From Bacteroidales bacterium (GTDB lineage: Bacteria; Bacteroidota; Bacteroidia; Bacteroidales; WCHB1-69): a stretch of DNA of 64,000 nt. The stretch covers positions 3,751 to 67,750 of the forward strand of contig JBGUMF010000048.1 in assembly GCA_045116675.1 (NCBI GenBank), written 5' to 3'. The translations under genes and the position numbers were made by a program. The notes under the pieces were generated by a model. It did no database searches and had not been told where the DNA came from. It saw only the letters and a list, made by a program, of their open reading frames with translations. Each line of letters begins with the position of its first letter. Within the stretch, counting starts at the first letter, position 1. This document shows, piece after piece, positions 14,011-45,356 of the stretch.

Positions 14011-14226
14011 CTATTGCTTGCACTTGAAGATGCTGATGCCCTCTGCTTCGTTGAGTTGGGCTTCCATGGCCTTGCACTCGTCTTTGTTTGATGTTTCATC
14101 TTCGTACACGGGTGCGAGGTGTGCGACGTCCGTCTTTGCGTAACAATGGCAACCGACTTTGTTGCAGGAAGTTGAGATTGCCGCCATCATTAACACAGCT
14201 GATACGATAGCCAATACTTTTTTCAT
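14011..14226 (-). CDS. small Cys-rich lipoprotein
   Basis: MKKVLAIVSAVLMMAAISTSC lipobox-type signal, with four further Cys in a 50-aa mature part. A dedicated terminator follows. Confidence 0.6.
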   Translation of the reverse strand: MKKVLAIVSAVLMMAAISTSCNKVGCHCYAKTDVAHLAPVYEDETSNKDECKAMEAQLNEAEGISIFKCKQ

Positions 14227-14329
14227 AATTTTTCTGAAGACTTCTTGGTTAAAAATAATGGGGTGACTGTGATCCTCTTTGCGGAAGTCTGTAACACATA
14301 GATATCGGCAGCCACTTTTTAATTGGGTT

Positions 14330-15034: not shown

Positions 15035-15047
15035 TATTATATTGCTG

Positions 15048-16152: not shown

Positions 16153-16310
16153 CAAAAATGCCAGTGTTGAACGGAATCCCTCTTAATTTTTTTTTCTTTT
16201 CCCTTTTATTGATTTCGTTAGACAATCATTCGTTATACATCCGTGGATGTAACACTATGATGCAAGAATCGCAAATGGTTGCAGTAGGTTGAAAAATTTT
16301 TTTCGATGAA

Positions 16311-16365
16311 TGATTTGGCCGCAAACAATGTCGTTCAGTTCACGAGCCAAGGCTGATTTGTGGAC
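16311..16365 (-). pseudogene. relic of a HEPN gene 3' end
   Basis: About 80 percent identical by eye to 19717-19770 of the intact HEPN gene. The minus-frame translation KSALARELNDIVCGQII compares with KSALARELNETVCGQII. No start and no upstream half. Confidence 0.55.
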
Positions 16366-16390
16366 ATTCTCCCATTCTTATTTTGATTAC

Positions 16391-16423
16391 AAAAAACAGC
16401 GACTTACTTTCGTAAATCGCTGT
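16391..16423 (-). terminator. hairpin plus T-run after tRNA-fragment copy A
   Basis: acagcgactta/taaatcgctgt stem, homologous to the hairpin behind the intact tRNA at 20320-20350. Confidence 0.5.
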
Positions 16424-16430
16424 CGTTTTT

Positions 16431-16459
16431 TGAGCGACAGACGGGGTTCGAACCCGCGA
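16431..16459 (-). repeat. tRNA 3'-end fragment, copy A (att-like direct repeat)
   Basis: tgagcgacagacggggttcgaacccgcga is the T-arm plus 3' acceptor strand only. Identical to copy B. Shares the 21-nt block agacggggttcgaacccgcga with the intact tRNA-Gly. Confidence 0.85.
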
Positions 16460-16464
16460 TTTTA

Positions 16465-16481
16465 GGGATAGAACGGAGAAA
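16465..16481. repeat. degenerate inverted copy of the GGGACA arm motif
   Basis: gggatagaacggagaaa compares with the reverse complement of the arm motif, gggacagaaacgggacaaa. Confidence 0.5.
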
Positions 16482-16491
16482 TTCCGTAAAG

Positions 16492-17994: not shown

Positions 17995-18024
17995 TTCTAT
18001 TTTTATCGTTGATGATTACGCCGG

Positions 18025-18032
18025 CAAAAATA
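18025..18032 (-). promoter_or_regulatory. -7 box
   Basis: Reverse strand TATTTTTG, 31 nt upstream of the start at 17994. Confidence 0.45.
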
Positions 18033-18041
18033 ATAAATTTC

Positions 18042-18125
18042 GATAAAACCGAGATGAATAAACGCAAGTTTTTTGATAAAACCGAGACGAATAATGATTC
18101 GATTTTTGATAAAACCGAGACGAAT
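18042..18125. repeat. three 18-nt direct repeats at an exact 33-nt period
   Basis: gataaaaccgaga(t/c)gaat at 18042, 18075 and 18108, immediately upstream of the ATPase promoter. Confidence 0.85.
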
Positions 18126-18195
18126 CTTTATTAATAAACTTTAATACGCTGAATTTCAAATATCTACAATCAAGATATTCCTGTATAAAATCTCA

Positions 18196-18220
18196 TTTCG
18201 TCCCGTTTCTGTCCCGATTT
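18196..18220. repeat. GGGACA arm motif, copy 1
   Basis: tttcgtcccgtttctgtcccgattt, near-identical to 20287-20311. Confidence 0.8.
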
Positions 18221-18259
18221 TAAAACAAAAATCAGTAGCTTACATCGGTAAGTTACTGA
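18221..18259 (-). terminator. hairpin plus T-rich tract after tRNA-fragment copy B
   Basis: 12-bp stem tcagtagcttac/gtaagttactga (one G-T pair), then tttttgtttta on the minus strand. Confidence 0.5.
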
Positions 18260-18281
18260 CACTGATTTGATTACAAGACTT

Positions 18282-18310
18282 TGAGCGACAGACGGGGTTC
18301 GAACCCGCGA
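18282..18310 (-). repeat. tRNA 3'-end fragment, copy B (att-like direct repeat)
   Basis: tgagcgacagacggggttcgaacccgcga, identical to copy A. No 5' acceptor strand, D-arm or anticodon arm upstream. Confidence 0.85.
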
Positions 18311-18314
18311 TTCT

Positions 18315-18337
18315 CGGACACTGCCCCCTTGGACAAA
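18315..18337. repeat. inverted GGACA half-sites flanking copy B
   Basis: cggacactgcccccttggacaaa. Two GGACA half-sites in the opposite orientation to the arm motif, with a longer spacer. Confidence 0.45.
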
Positions 18338-18402
18338 TTCTTTTTATCAACTTGCTGAATGTTAATAATTTGAGAATTACACTTTTGGTCATTTTTGCAT
18401 TG

Positions 18403-18426
18403 TTTTGTCCCGATTCTGTCCCGAAA
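18403..18426. repeat. GGGACA arm motif, internal copy
   Basis: ttttgtcccgattctgtcccgaaa, followed by two small hairpins (18445-18470 and 18474-18507) but no tRNA-like core. Confidence 0.7.
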
Positions 18427-18557
18427 CAAAACAATAAAAATAACTGATTTTCAATCAATTATCAGTATTTTTGATGCACCCTTTACGATAGGGGAAAAGC
18501 GGTGCATTTTTTTGTTGTTTCTCAAAGAACGCAAAATTTTGTAGCAAAAATTTGCGG

Positions 18558-18565
18558 CAAAAATA
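18558..18565 (-). promoter_or_regulatory. orphan -7 box facing the non-coding 18.3-18.55 kb stretch
   Basis: Reverse strand TATTTTTG. No credible ORF lies downstream. Confidence 0.3.
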
Positions 18566-18648
18566 TGCATTTTTTGGACTCCAAAAGCGTGTGTTCTAAC
18601 AAAAAAATGGATGACAAATATCGTACTGTGCCAGTATGAGAAAAAATG

Positions 18649-18656
18649 TATTTTTG
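18649..18656 (+). promoter_or_regulatory. -7 box
   Basis: TATTTTTG, 57 nt upstream of the ATG at 18713. Confidence 0.45.
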
Positions 18657-18712
18657 CGAGGTCATAGCTATTAGAGAGATAATATGACAAGAGAGAATAA
18701 TTATTATTACGT

Positions 18713-19339
18713 ATGCAAATTGAAGATTCACATCGCGACTATTACGATTATGCTTGTCCGCATTTGATTGACAAAGCCATAGTCTATCATCGGAACAGTC
18801 AGATTGTTTTGGGACAGGAACTCTTTTTCAACTCAAACCCTTTCCAGATCGATATGGACAAATGGTTCAATAAGTTTGATCATCAGTGGCATTGTCAAAC
18901 GTGGGAGTTTGGACTCTATGTCGGGTATGAATACTACAAATTTTTAGTTGGCAGATATTTCGAAAAAAGTCATCTCATTCTGGAATATTTGCAAGCTACG
19001 GAGTCAGAGCGTGAGAAAAATGAACGAGAATCTTTGAAACGGCCATCCAACGCTGCAATCGTATTGGTTTCAAAATACGGGATGTATAATGACCGTTTTG
19101 CCGGACGGGAATTGCGTTTCACCCGGGAGTATTGGCAAGTTGATCATGCTCTAATAGAAAACCCAATTTTAAAAGAGACATGGCTCACAAAGGTTCTTTC
19201 GCCCGAGAGCGTATGGACCAATGTCTATAACTATTTGGTGGCCACAAAAGATGAGCCCGTTCAGGACAGTCGCACAAACACAGAGAAAATTCTGTCAGCA
19301 GGCTTTGACACAAAGACCAGTTTCAGAAATGTGAAATAA
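18713..19339 (+). CDS. hypothetical protein, no recognisable domain
   Basis: 208-aa ORF with its own promoter box and protein-like composition (rich in W/Y/H/E). Visibly AT-rich codon usage. Convergent with HEPN-MNT. Confidence 0.6.
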   Translation: MQIEDSHRDYYDYACPHLIDKAIVYHRNSQIVLGQELFFNSNPFQIDMDKWFNKFDHQWHCQTWEFGLYVGYEYYKFLVGRYFEKSHLILEYLQATESEREKNERESLKRPSNAAIVLVSKYGMYNDRFAGRELRFTREYWQVDHALIENPILKETWLTKVLSPESVWTNVYNYLVATKDEPVQDSRTNTEKILSAGFDTKTSFRNVK

Positions 19340-33038: not shown

Positions 33039-33920
33039 ATGAAAAAAATCACCTTTATCATTCTTTTTATTGCCACAGTGGCGGCAGCTTGGGCGCAGAA
33101 GCCCGACAAGAAAACCGTGAAATTGGAGAAACAGCTTGTGGGGACTTTCGTGGAAATTCCCTCGGTGCATTACACCGAGTACATCCGCGACACGAACATG
33201 GAAGTGTACGCGTCTCAGGAAATCACGCTGGCGGGATTCCGCATGTTGGAAACGGAGGTGTCCAACAAGGTGTATGACGCCTTTCTGGAGGATTTGAAAG
33301 CACAGGGCCGGATGAAGGATTACGAGTCGGCCCGTGTCCATAACGAGGGCTGGGCTCCCTGGTTGGACAGACCTGTTGACGAGTTCCTGCAAAATCAGGG
33401 AGACTGGGCACCGGTTTATGCCAATTGCCCGGTGGTGAACATCAGCTACGAAAGCGCACAACTGTTTTGCCAGTGGCTGAATGAGAAGATAGCAAGTCCG
33501 GAGTGGGAATATATGCTGCCTACTCGAGAACAATGGCGGGGTGCGGCAAGTTGTGGTGACCCTAATGCATCCTATTCTAATGGTTCTCCATTTCTTGAAA
33601 CCATTGCTAACAAACCCAGATATAACTATTGGCATGTCCCCGAAATGTATATCTCCCGCACGGACGATGGGTATAAAGTGATGGGTCTTTGGTCTGTAAA
33701 ATATCATATTCCCCCTACAGTGCCGGTGAAGACATACTACCGTAACGCCTACGGTCTTTACAATATGTGCGGCAACGCGGCGGAGATGGTTGATGAGCGC
33801 GGCGTCGCGATCGGCGGCAGCTGGTACGACCCTGGCTACGACATCCGTATCGACAGCGAGAAGCCCTACGACGCCCCGTCCCCGCTGATCGGCTTCAGGG
33901 TGATTGCGGTGAAAAAGTAA
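33039..33920 (+). CDS. SUMF1/FGE-fold (formylglycine-generating-enzyme family) protein
   Basis: Signal peptide, then ...MLETEVSNKVYDAFL..., GLYNMCGNAAEMV, GGSW and IGFRV. Confidence 0.75.
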   Translation: MKKITFIILFIATVAAAWAQKPDKKTVKLEKQLVGTFVEIPSVHYTEYIRDTNMEVYASQEITLAGFRMLETEVSNKVYDAFLEDLKAQGRMKDYESARVHNEGWAPWLDRPVDEFLQNQGDWAPVYANCPVVNISYESAQLFCQWLNEKIASPEWEYMLPTREQWRGAASCGDPNASYSNGSPFLETIANKPRYNYWHVPEMYISRTDDGYKVMGLWSVKYHIPPTVPVKTYYRNAYGLYNMCGNAAEMVDERGVAIGGSWYDPGYDIRIDSEKPYDAPSPLIGFRVIAVKK

Positions 33921-33963: not shown

Positions 33964-35181
33964 ATGACAGTGAAAGTTATGAAAAACCGGCTCGTTGCTG
34001 TTGCCAGTCTGTTGATTGTCGCACTGTTGGGTTTTGCATCGTGTGGCGGTACCAAAACCAATAATATGGGCAAGGTCACCATGGACGAGATTCGCAAGAC
34101 CGATTTGTCGCGGCTTATTATGTCCGATACCATCTTTTTAGAGCCGGATGATTATGTTTCCGAGACCGAAGAGAATGTTTTCAATGAGAAGAACTTAGAG
34201 TCGCGCTGGTTTGAGCCGATCGGTTTCCGCGGCAGCGACTGCCAGCGTTTCTACATACACTACGACTCCGTTTATCACAAAGGTAACGGTGTGTATAGGG
34301 TGTATGGTCGCACTCGTTACCGCGACACTATCCGATTATTCACCGGAATGCTTATGCTGGATTCTCTGTGGTTGAATGAGGAGGAATATCTGCCAAAATA
34401 TGCTGAATTCGGCAGGTTATACGGCTACTACATGTATGAAGAAGACGAATTTTCCGGTGGCGGGGTGCTGTCTGGCAAGATGCGGATTGACTTTGCCAAA
34501 GTAAACGGACGATTCTACTACGATGCCGTTATGCTCGGTTGCGCTGATGGTTACGAGAACAGCCAGTACGAAGGAACTTGGACGTCGAAGGATTTATCCC
34601 GCAAAGAAAAGTGCAACTGGGGCGACTTCCGGATTCCCGACTCCCAATACTTGGATGCCGGCGCGGGAGAGTTTAGTCCTGACGAAAAGTGTTTGGACCG
34701 AGGGTGGCGCATCTATACATACATTTTTGAGGAGAATGACTCCTTGCAGGCACTCTTGCGGGCTGATGAACAGTGGTTTACGCATGAAAACGACTATGTT
34801 ATCCCTTATTCCGGCAGGTTGCAGCGTTACCTCAAAACATACGGTCGCCACAAACGCCCAGCCGCCAAGGTGGTGTTGGCCACTATTCCGTCAACCGAAG
34901 AGGAATTTTATGTCTGGTATAAGGTGGTGGAAGAGCCCCTGTCACAAGACAATCACCTTTGGAATCGGATAAGCGAGTACGCCTTCGCCGACAGTACCGG
35001 CATCATGTTCGCCTACATGCGCATGGGCGAATTTTCAGACGGGTACATTTCGGAGGGTCTTTTCGATGATTATATCAGATTAAAGGAAAAACACCCTGTT
35101 CTTTTCGCCCAATATCGTAAACGGTTATCGCGAATGTGGAACGAGGTGTATGACGAATGGGAGACGTTGTACGGAGAGTAA
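33964..35181 (+). CDS. lipoprotein of unknown function
   Basis: MKNRLVAVASLLIVALLGFASCGG lipobox (the start may be 33979). No recognisable domain. Confidence 0.6.
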   Translation: MTVKVMKNRLVAVASLLIVALLGFASCGGTKTNNMGKVTMDEIRKTDLSRLIMSDTIFLEPDDYVSETEENVFNEKNLESRWFEPIGFRGSDCQRFYIHYDSVYHKGNGVYRVYGRTRYRDTIRLFTGMLMLDSLWLNEEEYLPKYAEFGRLYGYYMYEEDEFSGGGVLSGKMRIDFAKVNGRFYYDAVMLGCADGYENSQYEGTWTSKDLSRKEKCNWGDFRIPDSQYLDAGAGEFSPDEKCLDRGWRIYTYIFEENDSLQALLRADEQWFTHENDYVIPYSGRLQRYLKTYGRHKRPAAKVVLATIPSTEEEFYVWYKVVEEPLSQDNHLWNRISEYAFADSTGIMFAYMRMGEFSDGYISEGLFDDYIRLKEKHPVLFAQYRKRLSRMWNEVYDEWETLYGE

Positions 35182-35222: not shown

Positions 35223-35230
35223 TATCTTTG
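35223..35230 (+). promoter_or_regulatory. -7 box
   Basis: TATCTTTG, 21 nt upstream of the ATG at 35251. Confidence 0.5.
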
Positions 35231-35250: not shown

Positions 35251-35700
35251 ATGTTGTTATCCAAAGAAATTGCCGTCTATATCAATCTGGCCGCCTGCCG
35301 GCTGAAGCAATACACCGCCGCCATGCTGAAGCAGAATAACATGGGGCTGACTCCGGAGCAGTTCCTGTTGGTGGACATCCTCTGGAATCAGGGCCCGATG
35401 TCGCAGCAGAGCCTGGCTAACAACATGCAGAAAGACAAGAACTCTGTTACCAAGCTGGTAGATGCGTTGGAGAAAAAGTCCTTTATTGCCCGGCGGAAAA
35501 ATCCCAACGACAAGCGTTCCAATATCATTGTGCTCACACCTAAGGGCGAGCGCATGAAGCAGGAAGCCAAGCAGTTTGGTATCTCTATGTTGGACAAAGT
35601 CCTCGCCGGCATCAGCGAGGAGGAACTGCGCAACTTTCTGGTTACCTTGGACAAGCTGTCGGAGAACATGTCGCAACCACTTGCGGAGGAGTACATGTAG
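35251..35700 (+). CDS. MarR family transcriptional regulator
   Basis: Winged-helix core LTPEQFLLVDILWNQGPMSQQSLANNMQKDKNSVTKLVDALEKKSFIARRKNPNDKRS. Confidence 0.85.
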   Translation: MLLSKEIAVYINLAACRLKQYTAAMLKQNNMGLTPEQFLLVDILWNQGPMSQQSLANNMQKDKNSVTKLVDALEKKSFIARRKNPNDKRSNIIVLTPKGERMKQEAKQFGISMLDKVLAGISEEELRNFLVTLDKLSENMSQPLAEEYM

Positions 35701-35854: not shown

Positions 35855-37138
35855 TTAGAACAACGCGCTCACCTTCTCGATGATGGTCTCGGATGGCAGG
35901 TCGGGCGAGAGGATGAGGTCGGGCTCTTTGAAGACGAATCCCTTGCTCATGGCGGTGAGGGAGCCTCCGCCGGTGCAGTTGAGCATGATGTATTCCTCCT
36001 TTTTCACCACCCCTTCCTTGACGGCTTGCGCCAGCGCGCTCACGGCCACACAGGCGGCGGGCAGAAGGTCGTAGCCCTCCAGATTACGGTACTGCATCAT
36101 CCAATACATGATGTCGTTGTTGTCGGCCAGGAACACGTCGCCGTGGCTTTCCGTCAGCGTGTCGAACAGGCCGCCGGCGAGACTGTAGGGCGGTTTGCGG
36201 TTGGAGAGCACCTTGGCGAGGATGACCTCGGCCTGACGGCGGCCCTCTTCAGCGGAAAGGTCGGGCAGGGCCCGTGACTGGGCCTTCCAGGCGTCGTACA
36301 TGAGGGTGAAGGGCTTGTTCTGGGCCACATATACGCGCATGTTGTTGTTGCCGAAGCGTCCGTCGGCCTCCAGACGGCAGGCGTTCTCCCAGGCGGCGAT
36401 GGCTCCGGTGCCGGAACCTACGGCCTGGAAGTAGGCGTCAGGGATGCGTTGCATCTGCTCCACACAGCTCAGCAGGGTGGTGCCCATGCCGTCGCGGCGC
36501 GCCACGTTCTTGGCCCCGCCTTCCAGAAAATAACGGTGGTCTTCCGCCAGCTTCTCGCCAACGGCGATGGCATCGTAATAGTCATACCCATGGGGCACGG
36601 CCACTAACTTGACGCACTTGTCCAGCTTCTTGCTGAACCAGAGGTCGTGGAGGTTGTCATAGGGCACGCACAGCACGATGGGGATGTGGTTGTCGGAACA
36701 CACCTGTGCGAAGGCGCGGGCCGTGTTGCCGGCGGACTGTACCACGAGGATGCGGTTTTCGTTGCGGCTGATGCGGGCCAGCACCGAGTAGGCCTCCGTC
36801 TCCTTGAAGGAGCAGGTGCGCATCTTGGCCCCGATCTTCGGGCACCAGCCGGAGAAGGTGATGTACAGGTTGTCCAAACCCAGGAATTTGGCCAGACCCT
36901 TGGACTTGTAGGTGACGGGGGCGCAGGATTTCTTCAGAGTGCGGTTGATGGGCATCCAGTCCGCATAGCGGTAGATACCTTTCAGGTCTTCGCGCGGGGT
37001 GAACAGGATGTTCTTGTAGATGGCGCGGATCAGCGACGGCTTCTTGCCGTCGGGGTCACTCAATGTCCAACCTTTGTCTTCAAATGTATGGCCGTTCTCA
37101 ACATTGACGAGAAGGTATTGCGTGGGTTTGAATCTCAT
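35855..37138 (-). CDS. threonine-synthase-fold PLP enzyme, most likely cysteate synthase (CapA-type)
   Basis: PLP-lysine context CSFKETEAY. N-terminus ...FEDKGWTLSDPDGKKPSLIRAIYKN...YRYADWMPI recalls annotated cysteate synthases. Shares an operon with an alpha-oxoamine synthase and an SDR. Confidence 0.65.
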   Translation of the reverse strand: MRFKPTQYLLVNVENGHTFEDKGWTLSDPDGKKPSLIRAIYKNILFTPREDLKGIYRYADWMPINRTLKKSCAPVTYKSKGLAKFLGLDNLYITFSGWCPKIGAKMRTCSFKETEAYSVLARISRNENRILVVQSAGNTARAFAQVCSDNHIPIVLCVPYDNLHDLWFSKKLDKCVKLVAVPHGYDYYDAIAVGEKLAEDHRYFLEGGAKNVARRDGMGTTLLSCVEQMQRIPDAYFQAVGSGTGAIAAWENACRLEADGRFGNNNMRVYVAQNKPFTLMYDAWKAQSRALPDLSAEEGRRQAEVILAKVLSNRKPPYSLAGGLFDTLTESHGDVFLADNNDIMYWMMQYRNLEGYDLLPAACVAVSALAQAVKEGVVKKEEYIMLNCTGGGSLTAMSKGFVFKEPDLILSPDLPSETIIEKVSALF

Positions 37139-37174
37139 AATCGTTATGGTTTTTAAGGGTGAATTATTGTTTGG

Positions 37175-39004
37175 TTATTTATTTCCTTTCTGGGTGGATG
37201 TGGATTGTGCGTTGATGATTTCCGCCAGGTCGCGCACGGGCCGGTCGGAATATCGGGCGAAGGTGGCGAGGCAGAGCGGGCAGGCGGTGGCGATGGCGTC
37301 GGCGCGGCTGGTGTAGAGGTTCTCCAAGGCGGCGCGTGTCATCTCCTCGCGCTGGGCGAAGCTGAGCGTCAGCGAGCCTAACGATCCGCCGCAGCAAATG
37401 CTCTCCTCACGGTTCTTTTCGGCCTCCGCAATGCTTGCCGACTTGCCGATGAGCTTCCGCGGCTCGTCGTAGATGCCGCATCCGCGTCCCAGCTCGCAGG
37501 GGTCGTGGAACACGTAGCACAGGTCGCTCTTCTCCAGTCGAATCTTGTCTTGTTGCACCAACTCGTTGAAATAGTGGCTGTAATGGACCACTCGGATGCC
37601 TGGCAGGTGGTATTCTTCCATGAACATCTTATAGCAGATGGGACAGCTCACCAGCAGGGTGTCGGCACCGCTGCCCAATATGATTTCTTCGTTTTTGTGC
37701 ATCAGCTCTTTGGCCGCTTCGGCACGTCCGGCGGTCAGCAGCGGTCGTCCGCAGCAGAGACCGCCGTCGCGGTCCATCCACACATAGTCCACGCCCGCTT
37801 TCTTGAGGATGGATTCCATGCTCTGTCCGATGGCGGGGGTGAGCTGGCTCATGCAGCCGCTGAAATAGAGCACCTTCCCATGGCTGGCGGTTTCGGTCAT
37901 GGGCTGTGTATTGATGTTTGAGTAGTCGGGGGAGAGGTTGTAGTGGCGGCGCGAACGTTCCATGATGCGCAGTTGCGGGCCTTCGACGCACACCTGGCAT
38001 ACGCTGTGGCACTTGCCGCAGAGGAGGCACTTGTCGGAAATCTCCTCAATGCGTTTCTCGTTGCCACGGCGCATCTGGCGGGTGAGATAGACAGTACAAT
38101 CCTTCAGATGGCTCCGGTTGACGCTCATCGGGCAGGCATCGATGCAGACGCCGCAGTTGGGACAACTGTAGACTTGCAGCTTGGCGAACCCTTTGCGGGA
38201 GTCGCGGATCTTGAGACCGGCATTGCGCAGGGGTATGAGCATCATCTCCGCCGGGATGTGCATGTAGCGCGTGAAGGGCAGCACGCACATAAAGACGCAG
38301 AGGGCGATGGAGTAGGCCCACCACGTGGGGAGCATGTTGAGGTCGTTGCCGAGGAACTGGCGGAAGATCCAGTTGGCCGGGATGGTCAGGAAGGAGCCGC
38401 CGCTGATGTGGGCGGTGAAACTCTCGGCCAGCAGTCGCAACGGGAAGATGGCCCACAACGCATAGAGGCCGATTTGGTTCAACAGGGAGGGACGTGCCGT
38501 GCGCCTCATGCCGAAGAAACGGGAGTGCACGCGCTTGATCATGGCCAGCACGATGCCGCTGAGCACAATCAGCAAAAAGAGGTCCATGAGGAACATCAGC
38601 AGGGAGCCTTGCAGGGTCACATCCGGCCCTTCAGCCACGAAGTAGTTGAAGAAGATGGGGTAGTAGAACATGTGGATACGTTCGGGTACGAAGAGGAAGA
38701 CCTCAAGATGGCCGAGTACAATGAGCATGAACCAGCCGAAGGCGATGCTGGAGTGCATGTAGCCCAACAGCTTGTTACGTTTCCAGAGTTTGACGTGGAT
38801 GAGGCAGTCCTTGAGGATGTCCCAGCAGTTCTTGACGATGATCTTGGGGTTGATAAGCGACAGCAGGAACTTGCGCAGGTCTTTTCTGGGCAGTTGCCAT
38901 AATATACGTACCATCCCGAAGAGGCAGTATGACAGTACGAAGACCATTCCGAAGAGGAAGGGCAGCACGAACGGGTGAAAGCCGGAAGGTATTCTATCAA
39001 TCAT
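37175..39004 (-). CDS. membrane-anchored HdrD/DsrK-like Fe-S protein (NarI/DsrM-like 5-TM N-domain fused to 2x[4Fe-4S] and two CCG domains)
   Basis: Five N-terminal helices with conserved His. CPNCGVCIDACP and CLLCGKCHSVCQ. CCG-type GLCCGRP...SCPICY and DPCELG...SICCGGS...ACPLC. Confidence 0.75.
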   Translation of the reverse strand: MIDRIPSGFHPFVLPFLFGMVFVLSYCLFGMVRILWQLPRKDLRKFLLSLINPKIIVKNCWDILKDCLIHVKLWKRNKLLGYMHSSIAFGWFMLIVLGHLEVFLFVPERIHMFYYPIFFNYFVAEGPDVTLQGSLLMFLMDLFLLIVLSGIVLAMIKRVHSRFFGMRRTARPSLLNQIGLYALWAIFPLRLLAESFTAHISGGSFLTIPANWIFRQFLGNDLNMLPTWWAYSIALCVFMCVLPFTRYMHIPAEMMLIPLRNAGLKIRDSRKGFAKLQVYSCPNCGVCIDACPMSVNRSHLKDCTVYLTRQMRRGNEKRIEEISDKCLLCGKCHSVCQVCVEGPQLRIMERSRRHYNLSPDYSNINTQPMTETASHGKVLYFSGCMSQLTPAIGQSMESILKKAGVDYVWMDRDGGLCCGRPLLTAGRAEAAKELMHKNEEIILGSGADTLLVSCPICYKMFMEEYHLPGIRVVHYSHYFNELVQQDKIRLEKSDLCYVFHDPCELGRGCGIYDEPRKLIGKSASIAEAEKNREESICCGGSLGSLTLSFAQREEMTRAALENLYTSRADAIATACPLCLATFARYSDRPVRDLAEIINAQSTSTQKGNK

Positions 39005-39314
39005 AAATTCTGTAAAGGGTCAAAATGAGGTGACGGGTGTTGATAGCGCGGGGGCACACCATGGTGCATTTGCCGCAGAGCATACAGTTGGATAACATGG
39101 GGCGCACATCCTGGTCGCGCTGGAGGGCGAGGATGACCTTGCGGAGGCTCATGCCGCTGAAGGATGCGGCGGTGCAGCTCGCACTGCAAGAACCGCAGCT
39201 CATGCAGATGCGGGCGTCCGGCTCCATGTTGCAGAGCTTCTTGTACAGGGTGTTGTCCACCGTGTCGAGGTTGATGGTGGAGCTTTTGCTGAGGGAGAAT
39301 CCGAAATCCATCAT
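38997..39314 (-). CDS. small di-cluster ferredoxin-like protein (HdrC-like core)
   Basis: Start taken at MMDFGF, whose ATG overlaps the upstream TGA (ATGA). CMSCGSCSASC and CMLCGKCTMVCP. The longer track ORF N-terminus is Arg/Gly junk that overlaps the hdrA-like gene. Confidence 0.65.
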   Translation of the reverse strand: MMDFGFSLSKSSTINLDTVDNTLYKKLCNMEPDARICMSCGSCSASCTAASFSGMSLRKVILALQRDQDVRPMLSNCMLCGKCTMVCPRAINTRHLILTLYRIYD

Positions 39315-40324
39315 GCCTGTGTCAGATAATGGTGAATACTGAGCACGGCGGCGCGGGCCTCGGCCACGGTCTCCGGCACGGTCTTGGTGCCCGTGCACGC
39401 GCCGGCGTAGAAGATGCCCGGTCGGTTCGACTCCATGATGGAATATACGTTGTCGCGGCTCTTGAGGAAGCCGTCGTCGTCAATGTCAAGGCCGATCATC
39501 TCAGCCAGCTCGCTGGTGCGCGGGTTGCACACCATGCCCGACATGAGCACAAGCAGGTCGAGGGTGACCTTCAACGGCTTGCCGGTGAGCGTGTCCTCCG
39601 CCTTCACCTGCACGCGGTTGTCAATGGTCTCGCCCACTTCCGACACGCGGCCACGGATGAAGTGCACGCCGAAGTCGCGCTGCGCGTTGATGTAGAAGTC
39701 TTCATATTTTTTGCCGAACAGACGCAGATCCATGTAGAAGCAATAGACCTCCGTGTCGGGGAATATCTCCTTGATTTCGATGGCCTGCTTGATGGCTGTC
39801 GTGCAGCACACCTTGGAGCATTGGCTGTTGCCGGCCTTCAGGTCGCGCGAGCCCACGCAATGCACGAAGCCAACCGCTTTGGGGTGCTCGGGGATGCGGG
39901 CATCGGCACGCTTGTTGAACCAGGCTTCCAGGTCGGCGTTGGTGATGACCCGGTCATACACGCCGTAGCCGTATTCCTCCTTCTTGGCTGCATCAAAAAG
40001 ATGGAAGCCACTGGCGACAAGGACGGCTTTGGCCACAATGTTGACACCGTTGTTTAAAATCACATTATAACTGTCTCCCAATGCGTTGATGGAGTTTACC
40101 TTGGTCTCCAGAAACACGTTGGCATCCTTGATCTGGTTGGACAAACCGTCGAGCAGCTCGTGCGAGGAGGTCATGTCGGGGAACAGCTTGTGCCATTGTG
40201 ACACGTGGCCGCCGAGGTGGTCCTGCTGTTCGATGATGATGGGGTTGTAGCCGAGTACGAGAAGCTGCTTGGCTGCCTCCATGCCGGCTATGCCGCCACC
40301 GATGATTACGATATTTTCTTTCAT
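39311..40324 (-). CDS. HdrA-like FAD/[4Fe-4S] oxidoreductase (minimal core, sHdrA/QmoA-sized)
   Basis: IVIIGGGIAGMEAA dinucleotide motif and the HdrA-family cluster signature CVGSRDLKAGNSQCSKVCC. Confidence 0.8.
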   Translation of the reverse strand: MKENIVIIGGGIAGMEAAKQLLVLGYNPIIIEQQDHLGGHVSQWHKLFPDMTSSHELLDGLSNQIKDANVFLETKVNSINALGDSYNVILNNGVNIVAKAVLVASGFHLFDAAKKEEYGYGVYDRVITNADLEAWFNKRADARIPEHPKAVGFVHCVGSRDLKAGNSQCSKVCCTTAIKQAIEIKEIFPDTEVYCFYMDLRLFGKKYEDFYINAQRDFGVHFIRGRVSEVGETIDNRVQVKAEDTLTGKPLKVTLDLLVLMSGMVCNPRTSELAEMIGLDIDDDGFLKSRDNVYSIMESNRPGIFYAGACTGTKTVPETVAEARAAVLSIHHYLTQA

Positions 40325-40328
40325 AATG

Positions 40329-41399
40329 CTAACAACATTTTATGGATTTGGGAAGCTCAGGACGCATAATATCTTCTTTGTTCAAGCCCAAATACTTGGC
40401 TTTCGGGTCGTATTCCACGCCGATTTTGTCTAAGAAAGGTTCCACAGCCACCTGGTGCAGTTGCAGACCGAGGTCCCAGGGATCATAGCCGAGGATGATG
40501 CCGGCCAGTTCCTCGTATGTCAACACGGGGATTCCGTAGCCATCTTTGCCGTAGGTCTTGCCTGTCTGCTCGGCGATGACGTACTGCCAACGGTCGAGGA
40601 AGTAGGGGCATCCGGGGCAGTTGGTGATGATGGCGTCGGGGTGGAAGGGCTCCATGGATTCAAATTTCTTCCAGGTGTTGGACACGCTGTAACTCCGGTT
40701 GGCCTTCACGTGGTATTGCCGGAACCCATAGCCGCAGCAGTGGCGCCGCTCAGGGTAGTCCACCACCTGCCCGCCCCAGCTCTCGATCATGCCGGCCAGC
40801 ACGTAGGGGTACTCCGCACCGCCCACGCCCTTGCTGGGGAACATCTTCGCATAATGGCAGCCGATGTGCTCCACAATCTTCAGTGGCTCGCCGGTCTCCT
40901 TGTTGACGAGATGGTATTTGGCCTTGGCGGCAATGGCGTTGCGCCAATGGTAGATGAGGTCGCTGGTGTGCGCCAGATACTTGGGCTTTTTGAACTCCCG
41001 CTTGCAGGCTTTCCACAGGTTCTCGCGGATCTTGGCCTCCAGCTCGGGAAACTCGTGCCATGTTTCCAAGATCTCGCAATAGTTGCCGAAGGAGGTGATG
41101 CAGCTGGGCACGTAGTTCTCGTAGCCGGCCTCCGTCATCAGGGCGAACTGCCGCGCCACGATGGTCATGACCGTCTCCTGGGGGATGGTGTCGCAGTGGT
41201 AGGCGATACCACCACAGGTGGTGTGATGAGGGGTCTCATAGAGGTCCTTTCCCAACACTTTTTGCGTGATTTCCGTGAACATCTTCTCACTGGCGGGGAA
41301 GAAATTCTGCCGGATGCAGCTGCGCACGTAATACCAGTGGTCATCGGGGATTTCCTTCTGGTAGTCGCTCCATATCTTTTGTTTGCCTTCTGTAATCAT
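40329..41399 (-). CDS. HdrB-like protein with two CCG domains
   Basis: First domain is degenerate (TTCGG). Second domain reads RRHCCGYG...TNCPGC. Follows the HdrC-like gene after 6 nt. Confidence 0.75.
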   Translation of the reverse strand: MITEGKQKIWSDYQKEIPDDHWYYVRSCIRQNFFPASEKMFTEITQKVLGKDLYETPHHTTCGGIAYHCDTIPQETVMTIVARQFALMTEAGYENYVPSCITSFGNYCEILETWHEFPELEAKIRENLWKACKREFKKPKYLAHTSDLIYHWRNAIAAKAKYHLVNKETGEPLKIVEHIGCHYAKMFPSKGVGGAEYPYVLAGMIESWGGQVVDYPERRHCCGYGFRQYHVKANRSYSVSNTWKKFESMEPFHPDAIITNCPGCPYFLDRWQYVIAEQTGKTYGKDGYGIPVLTYEELAGIILGYDPWDLGLQLHQVAVEPFLDKIGVEYDPKAKYLGLNKEDIMRPELPKSIKCC

Positions 41400-41405
41400 A
41401 ACGGA

Positions 41406-42122
41406 TTAATGGTTAAAATGTTTGTCCGAGCAGTACTCGAATGCCTGTCTTTCGTATTCTTCAATATCCATACCCATCTCTTCGGCCTTGGCTTTGGAGT
41501 ACTCCTCCACGATGCGGATGCGTTCGGTGCCGCCAGTCACATCGAAGATGGCCTTGAGCTCGTCAAGCGACTCCTGCGGTATCTTCCGCAGGATGCCGGG
41601 CCCGTCGCCCATGTAGTTGGCACCCTGGCGTGCGAGGCTCTGCTCGAGATGCTCGGTATGCCATTTCCAGACGGGGCCGGACTCTTTATGATCCTCCCAT
41701 TTGAAGGATTTGGGATGGACGCAGTAGCCGTAGTTGAGGATGTTGCCCGTCATGATGTGGGTGAGGGGCAACAACTGGCGACCCTTCTCCGATTCGGTGA
41801 AGTAGCCGAGGCGGGCACTGAGGTCGCGCAGGGCGATGATGACGAGGCCGGGCCCGTTCTTGCGCGGGCAGCGCGTCACGCAGCTCATGCACTCGCCGCA
41901 GTACCAGATGATGTCCGACTTCAGCAACTCTTCGATCTGCTTGTCGTCGCGTGTCTGCACGATGCTGACGATTTTTCGGGGATCATATTTGTAAAACTCT
42001 GCCGCCGGACATATCGCCGTGCAGGTCCCGCAGTTGATGCAGGTGTGGAACCCTTCTTTGAAACGGTAGTCCTTGCAAAGCTCCTCGTATAGGTTCTTGG
42101 GTTTGTTGTCTTCGTTGTTCAT
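41406..42122 (-). CDS. HdrC-like 2x[4Fe-4S] protein
   Basis: CINCGTCTAICP and CGECMSCVTRCP with a long helical C-terminal extension. Its ATG abuts the SDR stop (TAAATG). Confidence 0.75.
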   Translation of the reverse strand: MNNEDNKPKNLYEELCKDYRFKEGFHTCINCGTCTAICPAAEFYKYDPRKIVSIVQTRDDKQIEELLKSDIIWYCGECMSCVTRCPRKNGPGLVIIALRDLSARLGYFTESEKGRQLLPLTHIMTGNILNYGYCVHPKSFKWEDHKESGPVWKWHTEHLEQSLARQGANYMGDGPGILRKIPQESLDELKAIFDVTGGTERIRIVEEYSKAKAEEMGMDIEEYERQAFEYCSDKHFNH

Positions 42123-42920
42123 TTACATGGGTTTTATTCGTTTGGCAATACGGGCGCACAGGCCTGGGAAAAACCGTTTTACATATACCATGATGAGTTC
42201 CTTGCGTCCCACGAGCACCTCGCGTTTGCCTTTGTCAATGGCCTTCTGGATTATTTTCGCGGCCTGGTCGGGGGAAAGCCCTCCGCCCTGACCGGGGTCC
42301 ATTTTGCCGTGTGGCTGGCCGCCCTTGTCCAAAGCCCGTAACGAGATGTTGGTCCGCACGCGTCCCGGGCATACGATGGTCACACGGATGTTGCGGTCCG
42401 AATATTCGGCCTGCAGGGTCTCGAAGAAACCGTAGAGGGCATGTTTGGAGGAACAGTAGCCGCAGCGCAGCGGGAATCCGAATCGTCCGGCGATGGAGGT
42501 GGTCACGGCGATGTGGCCGCCGCCCGCCGCCAGCATCTTCGGCAGCACGGTCTTGGCGATGGCCACCGGGGCGAAGTAGTTGATTTCCATAAGCTGGCGT
42601 ATCATCCCCATGGAGGTGTCCTCCACCGTGGTGCGCTGGCTGATGCCGGCGTTGCAATACAGGATGTCGATGCGGTTGAACGCACGCCAGGCTTCTTCGG
42701 CCAGTGCCTCGATGCCGTCCGGTTGCTGCAAGTCGTAGGGTAGGGCATGGACTTTCGCGCCAAGGTCACGGCATTTGGCCACCACCGGCACCAACTCTTC
42801 TGCTGTCAAGGCGGTCAGGACCAGGGAGGCGTGCTCTGCGGCATAGCGGTAGGCGCACGCTTCCCCGATGCCGGAGGAAGCCCCTGTAATCCAGATTACT
42901 TGTCCGTTTCGTTCTGTCAT
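42123..42920 (-). CDS. SDR ketoreductase (candidate dehydrocapnine / 3-keto-sphingoid reductase, CapC-type)
   Basis: ITGASSGIGEA, CNAG and YCSSK. Lies directly downstream of the alpha-oxoamine synthase. Confidence 0.8.
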   Translation of the reverse strand: MTERNGQVIWITGASSGIGEACAYRYAAEHASLVLTALTAEELVPVVAKCRDLGAKVHALPYDLQQPDGIEALAEEAWRAFNRIDILYCNAGISQRTTVEDTSMGMIRQLMEINYFAPVAIAKTVLPKMLAAGGGHIAVTTSIAGRFGFPLRCGYCSSKHALYGFFETLQAEYSDRNIRVTIVCPGRVRTNISLRALDKGGQPHGKMDPGQGGGLSPDQAAKIIQKAIDKGKREVLVGRKELIMVYVKRFFPGLCARIAKRIKPM

Positions 42921-42947
42921 GATATCGGTTTGTGTTGTATGATGCCG

Positions 42948-44207
42948 TTAAAGAGCCATGTTGGGGATCTCGTGGTCGTAGTCGCCCTTGGCCAGACGCT
43001 CCTTGATGTCGCGGAAGGCATCCAGGGTGCGGTCCACGTCCTCGATGCTGTGCGCGGCGGTGGGGATGATGCGGAAGATCAGCATTCCGGGAGGAATGAC
43101 CGGGTAGGTGACGATAGAGCAGAAGATGTTGTAGTTCTCGCGCAGATCGACGGCGATGTTGGTGGCCTGGTTCACGCCGCATTTCAGGTGCACGGGCGTG
43201 ACGCATGCCTCCGCGGGACCGATTTCGTAGCCGAGGTCGCGGAAGCCCTTCTGGAGCCGGCGGGTGACCTCCCACAGGTGGGCACGACGGGCATCGCCTT
43301 CGGCACTGCGGATGATCTCCAGACGTTTCAGACAGCCTTCCACGATGGGCATGGGCAGCGATTTGGCGTACATCTGCGAGCGCATGTTGTATTTCAGATA
43401 ATCGATGATGGCCTTCTCCGTGGCGACGAAACCGCCGATGGTGGCCATGGACTTGGCGTAGGCACCGATGTAGATGTCAATGTCGTCCATCACGCCGAAA
43501 TGTTCGGAGGTGCCGCGTCCGTTAGGTCCCATCACGCCGAAACCGTGCGCATCGTCGATGAGGATGCGGAATTTGTATTTTTTCTTCAGGGCGGCAATCT
43601 GGTCCAGGATGCCCAGTGCGCCGGTCATGCCGAAGACACCTTCTGTGATGAGCAGCACGCCGCCGCCGTTCTGGTCGGCCACCTCGGTGGCATGAGCCAT
43701 CACGCGGTCGCAGTCCTCGATGTTGTTGTGGCGGAATTTGTACTTGTGGCCCAGATGCAGACGGATGCCGTCCAGCAGGCAGGCGTGTGCCTCTGCGTCA
43801 TACACGATGACATCGTGGCGGTTCACCAGCGAGTCGATGGTGGAGAGGATGCCCTGGTAGCCGAAGTTGAACTCGAAGGCGGCCTCTTTGCCCTCGAACT
43901 CGGCCAGCTCGCGCTCCAGTTTCTCGTGCAGGGCCGTTTGCCCCGTCATCATACGGCTGCCCATCGGGTAGGCCATACCCCAGCGGGCTGCAGCCTCCGC
44001 GTCGGTCTTTCTGATCTCCGGGTGGTTGGCAAGACCCAGGTAGTTGTTGAGGCTCCAGCAGAGCACTTCTTTGCCGTTGAAACGCATGTGCGGACCCAAT
44101 TCGCCTTCCAGTTTCGGGAAAGTGAAATAACCTTCCGCTTTATCACGGTATTGCCCGATAGGGCCGCCCGTGGATTGTTTGATTCTTTCGAAAATGTCTT
44201 TTTGCAT
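42948..44207 (-). CDS. alpha-oxoamine synthase family PLP enzyme (candidate cysteate-C-fatty-acyltransferase, CapB/SulA-type; serine palmitoyltransferase is the alternative)
   Basis: ...NNYLGLANHP..., DDAHGFGVMG, and PLP-lysine context YAKSMA. 419 aa, typical of the AONS/SPT fold. Confidence 0.8.
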   Translation of the reverse strand: MQKDIFERIKQSTGGPIGQYRDKAEGYFTFPKLEGELGPHMRFNGKEVLCWSLNNYLGLANHPEIRKTDAEAAARWGMAYPMGSRMMTGQTALHEKLERELAEFEGKEAAFEFNFGYQGILSTIDSLVNRHDVIVYDAEAHACLLDGIRLHLGHKYKFRHNNIEDCDRVMAHATEVADQNGGGVLLITEGVFGMTGALGILDQIAALKKKYKFRILIDDAHGFGVMGPNGRGTSEHFGVMDDIDIYIGAYAKSMATIGGFVATEKAIIDYLKYNMRSQMYAKSLPMPIVEGCLKRLEIIRSAEGDARRAHLWEVTRRLQKGFRDLGYEIGPAEACVTPVHLKCGVNQATNIAVDLRENYNIFCSIVTYPVIPPGMLIFRIIPTAAHSIEDVDRTLDAFRDIKERLAKGDYDHEIPNMAL

Positions 44208-44230
44208 AATGTTATAAATGTGATTGTTAA

Positions 44231-45316
44231 TTAATTGTCTGATTTGCTGACCTTTTCACGGGATACTAAGCCCATGGCTTTGAACAGGAATTTGGGCAGG
44301 GGCTTCTCCCGTTTCCGGTTGATGAGGTCGATGAACCATCCGAGCTTCTTGATGACGGGAATCTTGTGGGTCTCCACAAATTCTATCAGGGTGCCGTCCG
44401 GGTCTTCAATGTAGGTGAAATGGCCGGAGGCATCGCCCATGTCAAAGACCTCGTTGTCGGGACAGCTGTCCACGGTGAAGGGATGGCCTTTCGAGGCGCA
44501 GAACTCGCCCAGCTTTTTCATGTTGGTGATGTCGAAGCAGAGCTGGATGAACCCCGGGTCGCCCCAGTAACGTCCTTCATAAATTTTCCTTGGCGTGCGG
44601 TCCAATGCCTGCACCAGCTCGATGCTGCCTTTCGGCATAATCTCGGACAACGGTCCTTTGGGCTTGGAGGGGTCTTTGAGCAGCACGCGACGGTACTGTT
44701 CGCCGGAGCCGGGCATGATCTGCCAGTCGTCGAACTGGCCGGTTTCATCGTAAATCACCTGCTCGTAGCCCAGCACTTCACGGTAAAAACGCACGGAAGC
44801 ATCCATGTCGGTGACCCCGATGACCGCGCCCGCCACGCCACCGGTGAGACAATGCTGTTCAATGTATATGTCGGATTGCTCCACCACCTGGAGGCAATTG
44901 CCGTACAGGTCACGAATGTACAGGCAGGGCGTTCCGTCGGGTAGGGCGGATATGGCGCTGCAGTCCGGCCATTTCGAGGAGGCGAATGCATGAAATGCTT
45001 TCACGTCGCGGCATTTGATCTTGGCGGCGAAAATGCCAAGGTCGCCCACGGCGATGTCAAAGGCCACCGGCACGGGCGTGCGCTCGCTGTACTGCCAGAT
45101 CTCCAAACCGCCGCCGCCCTGCAGGCTCACGGCGATGCAGGCATGCCGCTTCTGCGGCTGGTTGCCCGTGTAGGGGAGCATCCGCTCCGCCACCGTGTCG
45201 TCTTCCAAAATCTTGATGTCAATGCCGAACATGTCGATGTACCAGTCCCACGACTTCCGCATATCTACGGTTCCTACACCAACTTGTTGAATGCCGGAAA
45301 TAAAAAAATCACTCAT
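44231..45316 (-). CDS. two-domain VOC (glyoxalase/dioxygenase-fold) protein
   Basis: Two repeated beta-alpha-beta-beta-beta-type halves (GIQQVGVGTVDM... and VAGAVIGVTDMDASVRFY...). First gene after the operon promoter. Confidence 0.65.
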   Translation of the reverse strand: MSDFFISGIQQVGVGTVDMRKSWDWYIDMFGIDIKILEDDTVAERMLPYTGNQPQKRHACIAVSLQGGGGLEIWQYSERTPVPVAFDIAVGDLGIFAAKIKCRDVKAFHAFASSKWPDCSAISALPDGTPCLYIRDLYGNCLQVVEQSDIYIEQHCLTGGVAGAVIGVTDMDASVRFYREVLGYEQVIYDETGQFDDWQIMPGSGEQYRRVLLKDPSKPKGPLSEIMPKGSIELVQALDRTPRKIYEGRYWGDPGFIQLCFDITNMKKLGEFCASKGHPFTVDSCPDNEVFDMGDASGHFTYIEDPDGTLIEFVETHKIPVIKKLGWFIDLINRKREKPLPKFLFKAMGLVSREKVSKSDN

Positions 45317-45348
45317 AAATGGTAAAAGCTTTTACTAATTTTAGGCTG

Positions 45349-45356
45349 CAAAGATA
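45349..45356 (-). promoter_or_regulatory. -7 box of the nine-gene operon
   Basis: Reverse strand TATCTTTG (followed by CAGCC), 33 nt upstream of the start at 45316. No other box was seen inside the operon. Confidence 0.5.

Follow-up and report, generated by a model that had tools for sequence, protein, structure and literature searches.

A five-gene block resembling heterodisulfide reductase (Hdr) genes lies directly upstream of a cysteate synthase gene (cysS), within a predicted sulfonolipid operon of a gut or rumen Bacteroidales bacterium of the WCHB1-69 lineage. The stretch analyzed here, hereafter the window, is 64,000 nt long (assembly GCA_045116675.1, contig JBGUMF010000048.1, positions 3,751 to 67,750), and nine co-directional minus-strand open reading frames (ORFs) run through it from 45316 to 35855, a check of the ORFs having returned the coordinates first read for them (Table 1). 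Across related loci, the block is an autonomous and widespread cassette with one recurring metabolic partner, the cysteate synthase CysS and not the sulfonolipid enzyme SulA; the sulfonolipid operon can do without it. Judged by its genes, it appears to be a relative of the sulfur-oxidizing Hdr-like (sHdr) systems, of new composition and a member of neither type I nor type II. We tentatively propose that it is an LbpA-independent, menaquinone-linked sHdr variant that may make sulfite for cysteate synthase.

Table 1. Coordinates in the window of the nine-gene operon, its promoter box, and the adjacent regulator
Feature	Length (aa)	Position	Strand	Basis or remark
Bacteroidota-type -7 box TATCTTTG		45349..45356	-	First ATG 33 nt downstream
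Two-domain VOC protein (glyoxalase/dioxygenase superfamily)	361	44231..45316	-	PF00903, 48 bits
SulA/CapB, cysteate-C-fatty acyl(-ACP) transferase	419	42948..44207	-	Match to PDB 7U7H
Classical short-chain dehydrogenase/reductase (SDR)	265	42123..42920	-	PF00106, 170 bits; NF004825, 227 bits
HdrC/sHdrC1-like protein	238	41406..42122	-	NF041779, 78 bits; two CX2CX2CX3C motifs, two [4Fe-4S]
HdrB/sHdrB1-like putative catalytic subunit	356	40329..41399	-	CCG domains
Short HdrA/sHdrA-like flavoprotein	337	39311..40324	-	PDB 6TJR, 205 bits; FAD and one [4Fe-4S]
HdrC2-like di-cluster ferredoxin	105	38997..39314	-	Two [4Fe-4S]; ATG overlaps HdrA stop
Membrane HdrD/EtfD(EMO)-like protein	609	37175..39004	-	~5 transmembrane helices, two [4Fe-4S], two complete CCG motifs
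Cysteate synthase (CysS)	427	35855..37138	-	TIGR03844, 418.7 bits (cutoff 324.9)
MarR-family regulator		35251..35700	+	PF01047, 68 bits; convergent with operon; own -7 box at 35223-35230

The link between the block and cysteate synthase emerges from 165 related loci and draws on two collection scans. Alignment of CysS against species-representative genomes yielded 80 loci at 53–82% identity, nearly all titled as uncultured Bacteroidales metagenome-assembled genomes (Cryptobacteroides, Alistipes, Egerieisoma, etc.) with a few other bin labels, and these were typed by tblastn with the window proteins; alignment of HdrB against metagenome contigs yielded 80 loci at 68–97% identity. In the CysS scan, the complete nine-gene order was found in nine loci, two more missed only a match to SulA, and approximately eight carried the block and CysS without SulA. 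The arrangement in the window is not a chance juxtaposition, since at least nine further genomes or metagenome contigs have all nine genes in this order. The five block genes are always complete and in fixed order (approximately 100 loci). On one metagenome contig (L155; 2208–3889, plus strand), two extra genes of 265 and 293 aa lie between HdrA and the ferredoxin, an insertion that looks secondary.

Forty-one loci carry both the block and CysS, and in every one CysS lies 3' of HdrD on the same strand, at a median distance of 14 nt, with a 4-nt overlap in nine and a gap of at most 55 nt in 38. This adjacency spans CysS identities of 51–100% and varied upstream contexts (SDR in 14 loci, MarR in 14, and others such as a CaCA exchanger or CarB in 13), and in a neighbor-joining tree of 89 CysS sequences the block-linked ones fall into three deep clades, with the adjacency having changed, by gain or loss, at least five times. 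The cassette is present or absent exactly 5' of CysS in two syntenic frames, SDR|CysS and CaCA|CysS-MscS; the commonest block-less context is RlmD-CaCA-CysS-MscS (36 loci), and in L091–L094 and L112 the block is inserted exactly between CaCA and CysS. Among the HdrB-scan loci with at least 1.5 kb of downstream sequence (n = 52), CysS directly follows HdrD in 18. Neighbor scans of the loci revealed no other recurring enzyme beside stand-alone blocks; ten tight co-directional neighbors, considered as other operonic partners, proved unrelated in a Pfam scan (a glycosidase, a nitroreductase, a metallo-beta-lactamase, PurA, a MiaB-like protein, and others). One stand-alone block (L129) has a Beta_elim_lyase gene, for a threonine aldolase-like pyridoxal phosphate (PLP) enzyme, 1 nt after HdrD in the usual position of CysS (14136–15158, plus strand).

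The genes on either side of the block are those of the capnine/sulfobacin pathway known from Capnocytophaga, Chryseobacterium, Flavobacterium, and Alistipes (CapA/Cys, CapB/SulA/CFAT, and CapC/KCR), with clear orthologs of CysS and SulA and an SDR between them. Identification of the 427-aa PLP enzyme as cysteate synthase rather than threonine synthase is secure on profile and structure matches: besides exceeding the family cutoff (Table 1), it matches the solved cysteate synthase PDB 9K3C over its full length at 474 bits, compared with 34 bits for threonine synthase, and the best threonine synthase model reached only 60 bits in a profile search. Its Phe-Lys pair F111/K112, the presumed PLP lysine site, is invariant in 51 homologs, and its predicted reaction is O-phosphoserine + sulfite -> L-cysteate + phosphate. 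Also secure on such matches is the assignment of the 419-aa alpha-oxoamine synthase to SulA/CapB and not to BioF or Spt, as it scores 568 bits against Alistipes finegoldii SulA (7U7H) and 546 bits against 28EH ("cysteate-C-fatty acyltransferase"), compared with 221 for Spt, approximately 200 for Kbl, and 160–175 for BioF. The SulA motif YAKSLPMP is present, and Lys282 is the equivalent of SulA Lys281, the lysine that separates SulA from Spt. An earlier note on this DNA, made from its letters, had read the first enzyme as cysteate synthase and placed the second, as an alpha-oxoamine synthase, in a sulfonolipid operon; the scores go against a grouping with threonine synthases or with BioF, either of which would have refuted that reading, and the note's domain calls for the nine genes agree with the profile searches.

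The remaining two genes of the sulfonolipid part are less sharply defined. Gene context makes the SDR a candidate dedicated 3-ketocapnine reductase, its position from SulA to the block or to CysS being kept in at least 14 loci; structure comparison found no specific solved homolog for it. In A. finegoldii, the 3-ketocapnine reductase (KCR) genes are not clustered with cfat and Cys (PMC11211663), whereas the window has all pathway genes in one operon. The VOC gene is invariably first in the SulA operon of relatives and lies upstream of SulA in at least 14 loci, although domain searches give the protein no assignable function and no role for it in sulfonolipid synthesis is known.

Turning to the block itself, the hdr-like genes make up a real module with conserved cofactor ligands, as the earlier note had supposed. 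All eight cluster cysteines of the HdrC-like protein are invariant (92 orthologs), as are Cys156, 169, 173, and 174 of the HdrA-like flavoprotein (83 orthologs), the eight cysteines of the ferredoxin (80 orthologs), and H70, H84, and H249 together with 18 cysteines of the 609-aa membrane subunit (79 orthologs). Since all cluster cysteines of the five proteins and the three membrane histidines are invariant across 79–92 orthologs, the block is evidently under strong purifying selection. Among the subunits, HdrB varies least (68–97% identity, compared with 38–76% for HdrD). Its C-terminal CCG motif is complete (C181, C221, C222, C261, and C264) and its N-terminal CCG motif is degenerate, with C28, C62, and C100 remaining and two cysteines lost; T61 and S103 are invariant in 30 Bacteroidales-family homologs. 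Past the HdrB fold, the protein continues in a tail of approximately 30 aa ending in ...LKC(C/F/H) (window 40329–40340). This tail looks similar to a DsrC/TusE-like carrier arm, yet the penultimate cysteine is present in only 103 of 220 full-length homologs (P0001–P0120 and P0489–P0607), with a cysteine among the last six residues in 130 of the 220, and we did not count it as evidence.

The HdrA-like protein aligns end to end with the sHdrA structure (residues 4–329 with residues 3–335 of 6TJR), whereas of the 650-aa methanogen HdrA only the core is matched (residues ~145–195 and 317–561). The true start of the ferredoxin is the ATG at 39314, an upstream GTG being discounted. For the membrane subunit, the best PDB match is Mycobacterium smegmatis EtfD (9OJN, 62 bits), with H249 aligned to the EtfD heme b ligand His241; its architecture is that of the menaquinone-reducing EtfD and predicts a menaquinone link, with putative binding of heme b and quinone. 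The five products may together form one membrane-anchored Fe-S/flavin complex, with an sHdrC1-B1-A-like core, an HdrC2-like ferredoxin, and an EtfD/EMO-like subunit, a proposal that we make with some reserve. Domain searches found no donor module in the block (hydrogenase, formate dehydrogenase, or NADH-binding domain), and database annotation of the block proteins extends no further than "heterodisulfide reductase subunit" ("heterodisulfide reductase subunit B" for HdrB).

Comparison with characterized systems places the membrane subunit near EtfD and the remaining subunits near Hdr and sHdr proteins. The EtfD structure has five transmembrane helices, a b heme on His78/His241 with a menaquinone site next to it, two cubane clusters, and two further clusters in the CCG domains, which together act as a wire taking electrons from the cytoplasm to the quinone pool (PMC13083937). 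Like this mycobacterial ETF:menaquinone oxidoreductase (EMO; 9OJN), the window subunit is a single chain with approximately five transmembrane helices, conserved histidines, two cubane motifs, and two CCG domains. The two differ in that both window CCG motifs have five cysteines, whereas EtfD has a linear [3Fe-4S] cluster in one, and in the long disordered C-terminal region of EtfD, which is absent from the 609-aa protein. The partners also differ, EtfD normally working with EtfAB and the window subunit having an HdrABC-like core and a ferredoxin; no etfAB genes occur in the window operon or in most loci. They were found near the block in only three loci, on the opposite strand in at least two (L148 and L154). 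In these loci (L134, L148, and L154), EtfA, EtfB, and an acyl-CoA dehydrogenase stand beside the block or CysS (in L154 at 16239–19206, minus strand).

With methanogen HdrABC (PDB 5ODC) and HdrED, the block shares the HdrA, HdrB, and HdrC folds and cluster motifs and a membrane subunit resembling a fused HdrE-HdrD, and the best pairwise score of its HdrB-like protein is to methanogen HdrB. Against this, the window HdrA, at 337 aa rather than approximately 650 aa, lacks the ferredoxin domains (N-terminal, inserted, and C-terminal) of the methanogen protein, two cysteines are missing from the noncubane site in the N-terminal part of HdrB, neither a hydrogenase nor a formate dehydrogenase accompanies the block as partner, and the hosts are without CoM/CoB metabolism. 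A role like that of QmoABC-AprAB (reduction of APS to sulfite) was rejected, given a single HdrA-like gene, the presence of a CCG-type HdrB, and a score of 43 bits against a cutoff of 300 with the qmoC model; no apr genes were found among the neighbors examined. Readings of the block as DsrMK or as a sulfite reductase were likewise set aside, as the subunit composition does not fit.

Where sulfane sulfur is turned into sulfite in the cytoplasm, the enzyme known to do so is the sHdr complex (PMC6067878, PMC11094781), in the reaction R-S-S- + 3 H2O -> R-S- + HSO3- + 5 H+ with release of four electrons (PMC6067878). The Dahl group distinguishes type I (shdrC1B1AHC2B2) from type II (shdrC1B1AHB3-etfAB-emo), and both always occur with LbpA and with TusA, DsrE, or rhodanese sulfur transferases (PMC11094781). 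Our reference was a Hyphomicrobium-type locus (L165; dsrE3C-shdrC1B1AHC2B2-orf-lbpA, plus tusA and soxT). As in the sHdr systems of Hyphomicrobium denitrificans, Aquifex, and Sulfobacillus, all block loci have their genes in the order C-B-A; HdrA is short (approximately 340 aa) and matches 6TJR end to end, and a second HdrC-like ferredoxin lies 3' of HdrA. Pairwise identities are 32% for HdrA against sHdrA (194 bits) and 32% for HdrC against sHdrC1 (88 bits). The N-terminal motif of the window HdrB is degenerate in the way seen in sHdrB1, which has been proposed as the subunit where sHdr complexes carry out their sulfite-forming catalysis: with the one sHdrB1 sequence compared, it shares the changes of CC to (T/S)C and of CxxC to C-x-T-S-F-G-N, the motif CCG(F/Y)GFR, and both terminal extensions, features that the alignment shows to be absent from methanogen HdrB, sHdrB2, and the HdrD domain. 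In type II systems, EMO is proposed to hand electrons to menaquinone (PMC11094781), and the membrane EMO/EtfD-like CCG protein of the block could do the same. Finally, the sHdr product, sulfite, is the substrate of the enzyme encoded downstream of the window block.

The differences from sHdr are no less evident. The block is without sHdrH, sHdrB2, sHdrB3, and EtfAB, the 609-aa membrane protein replacing B2/B3, and its HdrA and ferredoxin genes overlap by 4 nt with no sHdrH between them. No LbpA, lipoate ligase, TusA, or DsrE gene lies within 10 kb across the 165 loci, and the hosts are anaerobic gut, rumen, and sediment Bacteroidota that are not known sulfur oxidizers. Identity to the window proteins is only 24–32%, the C-terminal CCG motif of sHdrB1 has Asp for one cysteine whereas that of the window HdrB is complete, and the window block is coupled to a biosynthetic enzyme. 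We set the block outside types I and II because sHdrH, LbpA, TusA, DsrE3C, and SoxT were not found in the window or in 164 loci and EtfAB is near the block in only three loci. In a single case (L169; 12358–13107, minus strand), a BPL_LplA_LipB-family gene (biotin/lipoate ligase) closely follows a stand-alone block in the opposite orientation, and true sHdr systems carry dedicated lipoate ligases.

According to the mechanism we favor, thiol-bound sulfane sulfur would be oxidized at the HdrB1-like site (R-S-S- + 3 H2O -> R-S- + HSO3- + 5 H+ + 4 e-), and the electrons would travel from HdrC to the FAD and cluster of HdrA, then by way of the small ferredoxin and the membrane subunit with its clusters to menaquinone, and onward to fumarate reductase. 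The sulfite would be trapped with O-phosphoserine by cysteate synthase, the product of the gene immediately downstream, and the cysteate would lead to capnine-type sulfonolipids via SulA, the SDR, and later steps. Of these elements, we infer with less than even confidence what the substrate is, which way the reaction runs, how the electrons travel, and which quinone accepts them. The earlier note had suggested that the module could, among other options, generate an oxidized sulfur species, with electrons exchanged with the quinone pool. For the latter, the EtfD-type membrane architecture speaks in favor, and for the former, the sulfur-oxidizing sHdr, which the note did not name, provides a precedent that, like the sHdrB1-type motif, suggests such an activity; LbpA, TusA, and DsrE are not nearby, and in both cases it is the function itself that we infer. 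The proposed role of LbpA is to channel two electrons to NAD+ in autotrophs (PMC6067878), and its absence here could be because a fumarate-respiring fermenter needs no such diversion. Somewhat doubtful in our view is the broader proposition that the block represents a third sHdr type in anaerobic gut and rumen Bacteroidales, which would be free of LbpA and sulfur transferases, wired to menaquinone in the manner of EtfD, and capable of anoxic oxidation of sulfane to sulfite with fumarate as sink, its output going to cysteate and immunoactive sulfonolipids.

Several observations weigh against sulfite supply as the function of the block. Two close relatives (L008 and L010) have VOC-SulA-SDR-CysS without the block, and similar block-less SulA-CysS operons occur in L016 and L023 (both VOC-SulA-CysS) and in L037, so the block is dispensable for the pathway; a further approximately 50 loci of the CysS scan have CysS alone and no block. 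Blocks found independently of CysS stand alone in 34 of 52 cases, without a CysS gene less than 10 kb away, and in environmental Bacteroidota the block forms an operon of its own; given so many stand-alone blocks, its primary role need not be cysteate supply. The HdrB-like protein is overall slightly nearer to methanogen HdrB (30% identity, 118 bits) than to sHdrB1 (24%, 94 bits), and the motif comparison draws on a single sHdrB1 sequence. LbpA is essential for sHdr in H. denitrificans (PMC6067878) and has been described as "inevitably" linked to it, and tblastn gave no match to LbpA, TusA, DsrE3C, sHdrH, or SoxT in the window and 164 loci (2.55 Mb; rhodanese not queried). The energetics are also delicate. 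Potentials reportedly compiled by Thauer in 1977 are approximately -39 mV for HSO3-/S0, approximately -74 mV for menaquinone, +33 mV for fumarate, and -116 mV when starting from sulfide; on these values, sulfane oxidation with menaquinone is slightly uphill and would need a pull by cysteate synthase or fumarate reduction, and it is downhill to fumarate or starting from sulfide. A tightly coupled sulfite sink would help with the uphill step, which fits the translational coupling of HdrD and CysS. The proposal as a whole is assembled from gene content and comparison, and we advance it as a possibility.

These counts also reshape what the earlier note had claimed for the block. Its dedicated sulfur-supply arm for sulfonolipid synthesis does not survive, as the block is tied to CysS and not to SulA and stands alone in about two thirds of the independently found loci. 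Synteny of the block with CysS across relatives is borne out by the 41 adjacent loci and is missing from the 34 stand-alone ones; absence of the block from the same operon, which the note had associated with chance insertion, was encountered in L008 and L010, yet chance is contradicted by those 41 tightly coupled loci. The earlier reading should be narrowed: the Hdr-like block is a cassette, autonomous and optional, whose coupling to cysteate synthase recurs and which may supply the sulfite for that enzyme.

Other explanations can account for part of these data. The block could be a general thiol/disulfide, persulfide, or electron-transfer module of Bacteroidota that detoxifies sulfide or reactive sulfur or serves as thiol:menaquinone oxidoreductase, in which case its closeness to CysS would reflect a shared sulfur-stress regulon under MarR and not a relation of substrate and product. 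That two thirds of blocks stand alone among unrelated neighbors, that MarR is the commonest neighbor of the block, and that otherwise identical sulfonolipid operons do without it all favor this explanation, and a Black Sea study of anaerobic isolates, Bacteroidota among them, guessed that their Hdr genes serve in sulfide detoxification (PMC11129491). A 3.9-Mb environmental Bacteroidota contig (L167) even has a 182-aa cupin of the cysteine dioxygenase (CDO) family inside the block, between HdrB and HdrA (11090–11638, plus strand; PF05995, 32.7 bits, cutoff 23), although we dismissed a CDO-like cupin as a regular block partner, this being one locus among 169. A general module leaves unexplained, however, why CysS is the sole recurring enzyme, at translational-coupling distances, in at least three contexts and three deep CysS clades; the 4-nt overlaps are more than regulation by itself can account for, and the single Cys16 of MarR is kept in just 11 of 26 orthologs, so that MarR is no obvious thiol sensor and was rejected as one. 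Such a module would also be compatible with sulfite as product. We regard this alternative as rather unlikely.

A reductive role would bring the block chemically nearer to classical Hdr activity: in the manner of a genuine heterodisulfide reductase, it would act on a thiosulfonate, be it S-sulfocysteine, thiosulfate, or an S-sulfonated carrier, and split its S-S bond to yield a thiol or sulfide together with sulfite, the latter for CysS. HdrB and HdrD CCG sites are known S-S bond reductases, and both membrane-subunit CCG motifs and the HdrB-like C-terminal motif are complete. A SulP-family permease (Sulfate_transp + STAS) adjoins CysS in at least five block loci (L125, 15569–17317, minus strand; L141; L145; L151; L080), which hints at transport of a sulfur oxyanion; it could import, for example, thiosulfate, which is available in the gut, and we count this neighbor in favor of sulfite supply by oxidation as well. 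The cleavage potential of thiosulfate is approximately -400 mV, however, which menaquinol cannot drive, the block has no low-potential donor module, and the sHdrB1-type degenerate motif points to an oxidative enzyme class, making reduction an improbable route. Far less probable still is that the block is a passenger, inserted by chance between the SDR gene and CysS and functionally unrelated to cysteate or sulfonolipids. It does behave as a movable unit, present or absent in the same operon frame (L008 and L010 compared with the window), but HdrD followed by CysS on one strand in 41 loci, in SDR-, MarR-, CaCA-, and CarB-type contexts and three deep CysS clades, is hard to reconcile with chance, which would rarely bring two particular genes together in approximately 3 Mb of genome, and the cofactor ligands are all under purifying selection. 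An assembly or binning artefact is an unlikely source of the adjacency, given independent assemblies. What probability remains belongs to functions that we have not thought of.

The layout of the window operon is compact. From upstream to downstream, the intergenic distances are 23, 27, 0, 6, 4, -4, -8, and 36 nt, with TAAATG at the SDR/HdrC junction and ATGA at the HdrA/ferredoxin junction; the range of these distances, the junctions, and the single -7 box in front were already in the earlier note and were verified. The TAnnTTTG pattern occurs 42 times in the window, compared with 23.6 +/- 5.2 expected from shuffles, and the only copy in front of the nine genes or in any of their spacers is the TATCTTTG box. 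The region has one other minus-strand copy, at 37081–37088, within the cysteate synthase ORF. As the spacers are free of further TAnnTTTG boxes, transcription of the nine genes as a single transcript is plausible, and the promoter-box pattern is compatible with it. A scan with sigma-70 promoter and terminator models, which are not applicable to Bacteroidota, gave nothing above shuffled controls.

The MarR gene that converges on the operon is of the kind most often found beside the hdr-like block, either immediately 5' of it (at least 14 loci) or, as in the window, on the far side of CysS and convergent, and its product may regulate the block or the operon. Just beyond MarR in the window lies a gene for an FGE-sulfatase-domain protein with an N-terminal signal-like sequence (33039–33920, plus strand), followed by one for a 405-aa protein with no Pfam match (33964–35181, plus strand); neither gene showed a tie to the operon in other loci.

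In literature searches, we found no paper linking Hdr-like genes with cysteate synthase, sulfonolipids, or Alistipes, and the sulfonolipid literature examined mentions neither the hdr-like block nor the source of sulfite or cysteate in strict anaerobes. Some of the Black Sea anaerobic isolates with Hdr genes (Ancylomarina and Labilibaculum) make capnine lipids, and no connection was drawn there (PMC11129491). The component families of the block are known; the novelty lies in how they are combined (an sHdr-like core with a ferredoxin and an EtfD-like anchor, and no LbpA), in the group of hosts, and in the link within an operon to an enzyme that consumes sulfite for biosynthesis.

Sulfonolipids of Alistipes-type gut bacteria act on host TLR4 signaling and track with diet and inflammatory bowel disease (PMC11525784). 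Should sulfite supply prove not to be its role, the block would still be a widespread and highly conserved five-gene complex of Bacteroidota without an assigned function. If the proposal is correct, it would identify the missing sulfite-supply step, explain the origin of sulfite in these anaerobes, and provide a genetic marker that separates self-sufficient from dependent producers. It would also place sulfide or sulfane oxidation within anaerobic commensals, offer a simpler, LbpA-free sHdr relative for the study of sulfur oxidation at CCG-type iron-sulfur sites, and constitute the first biosynthetic (assimilatory) role of Hdr-like sulfur oxidation.

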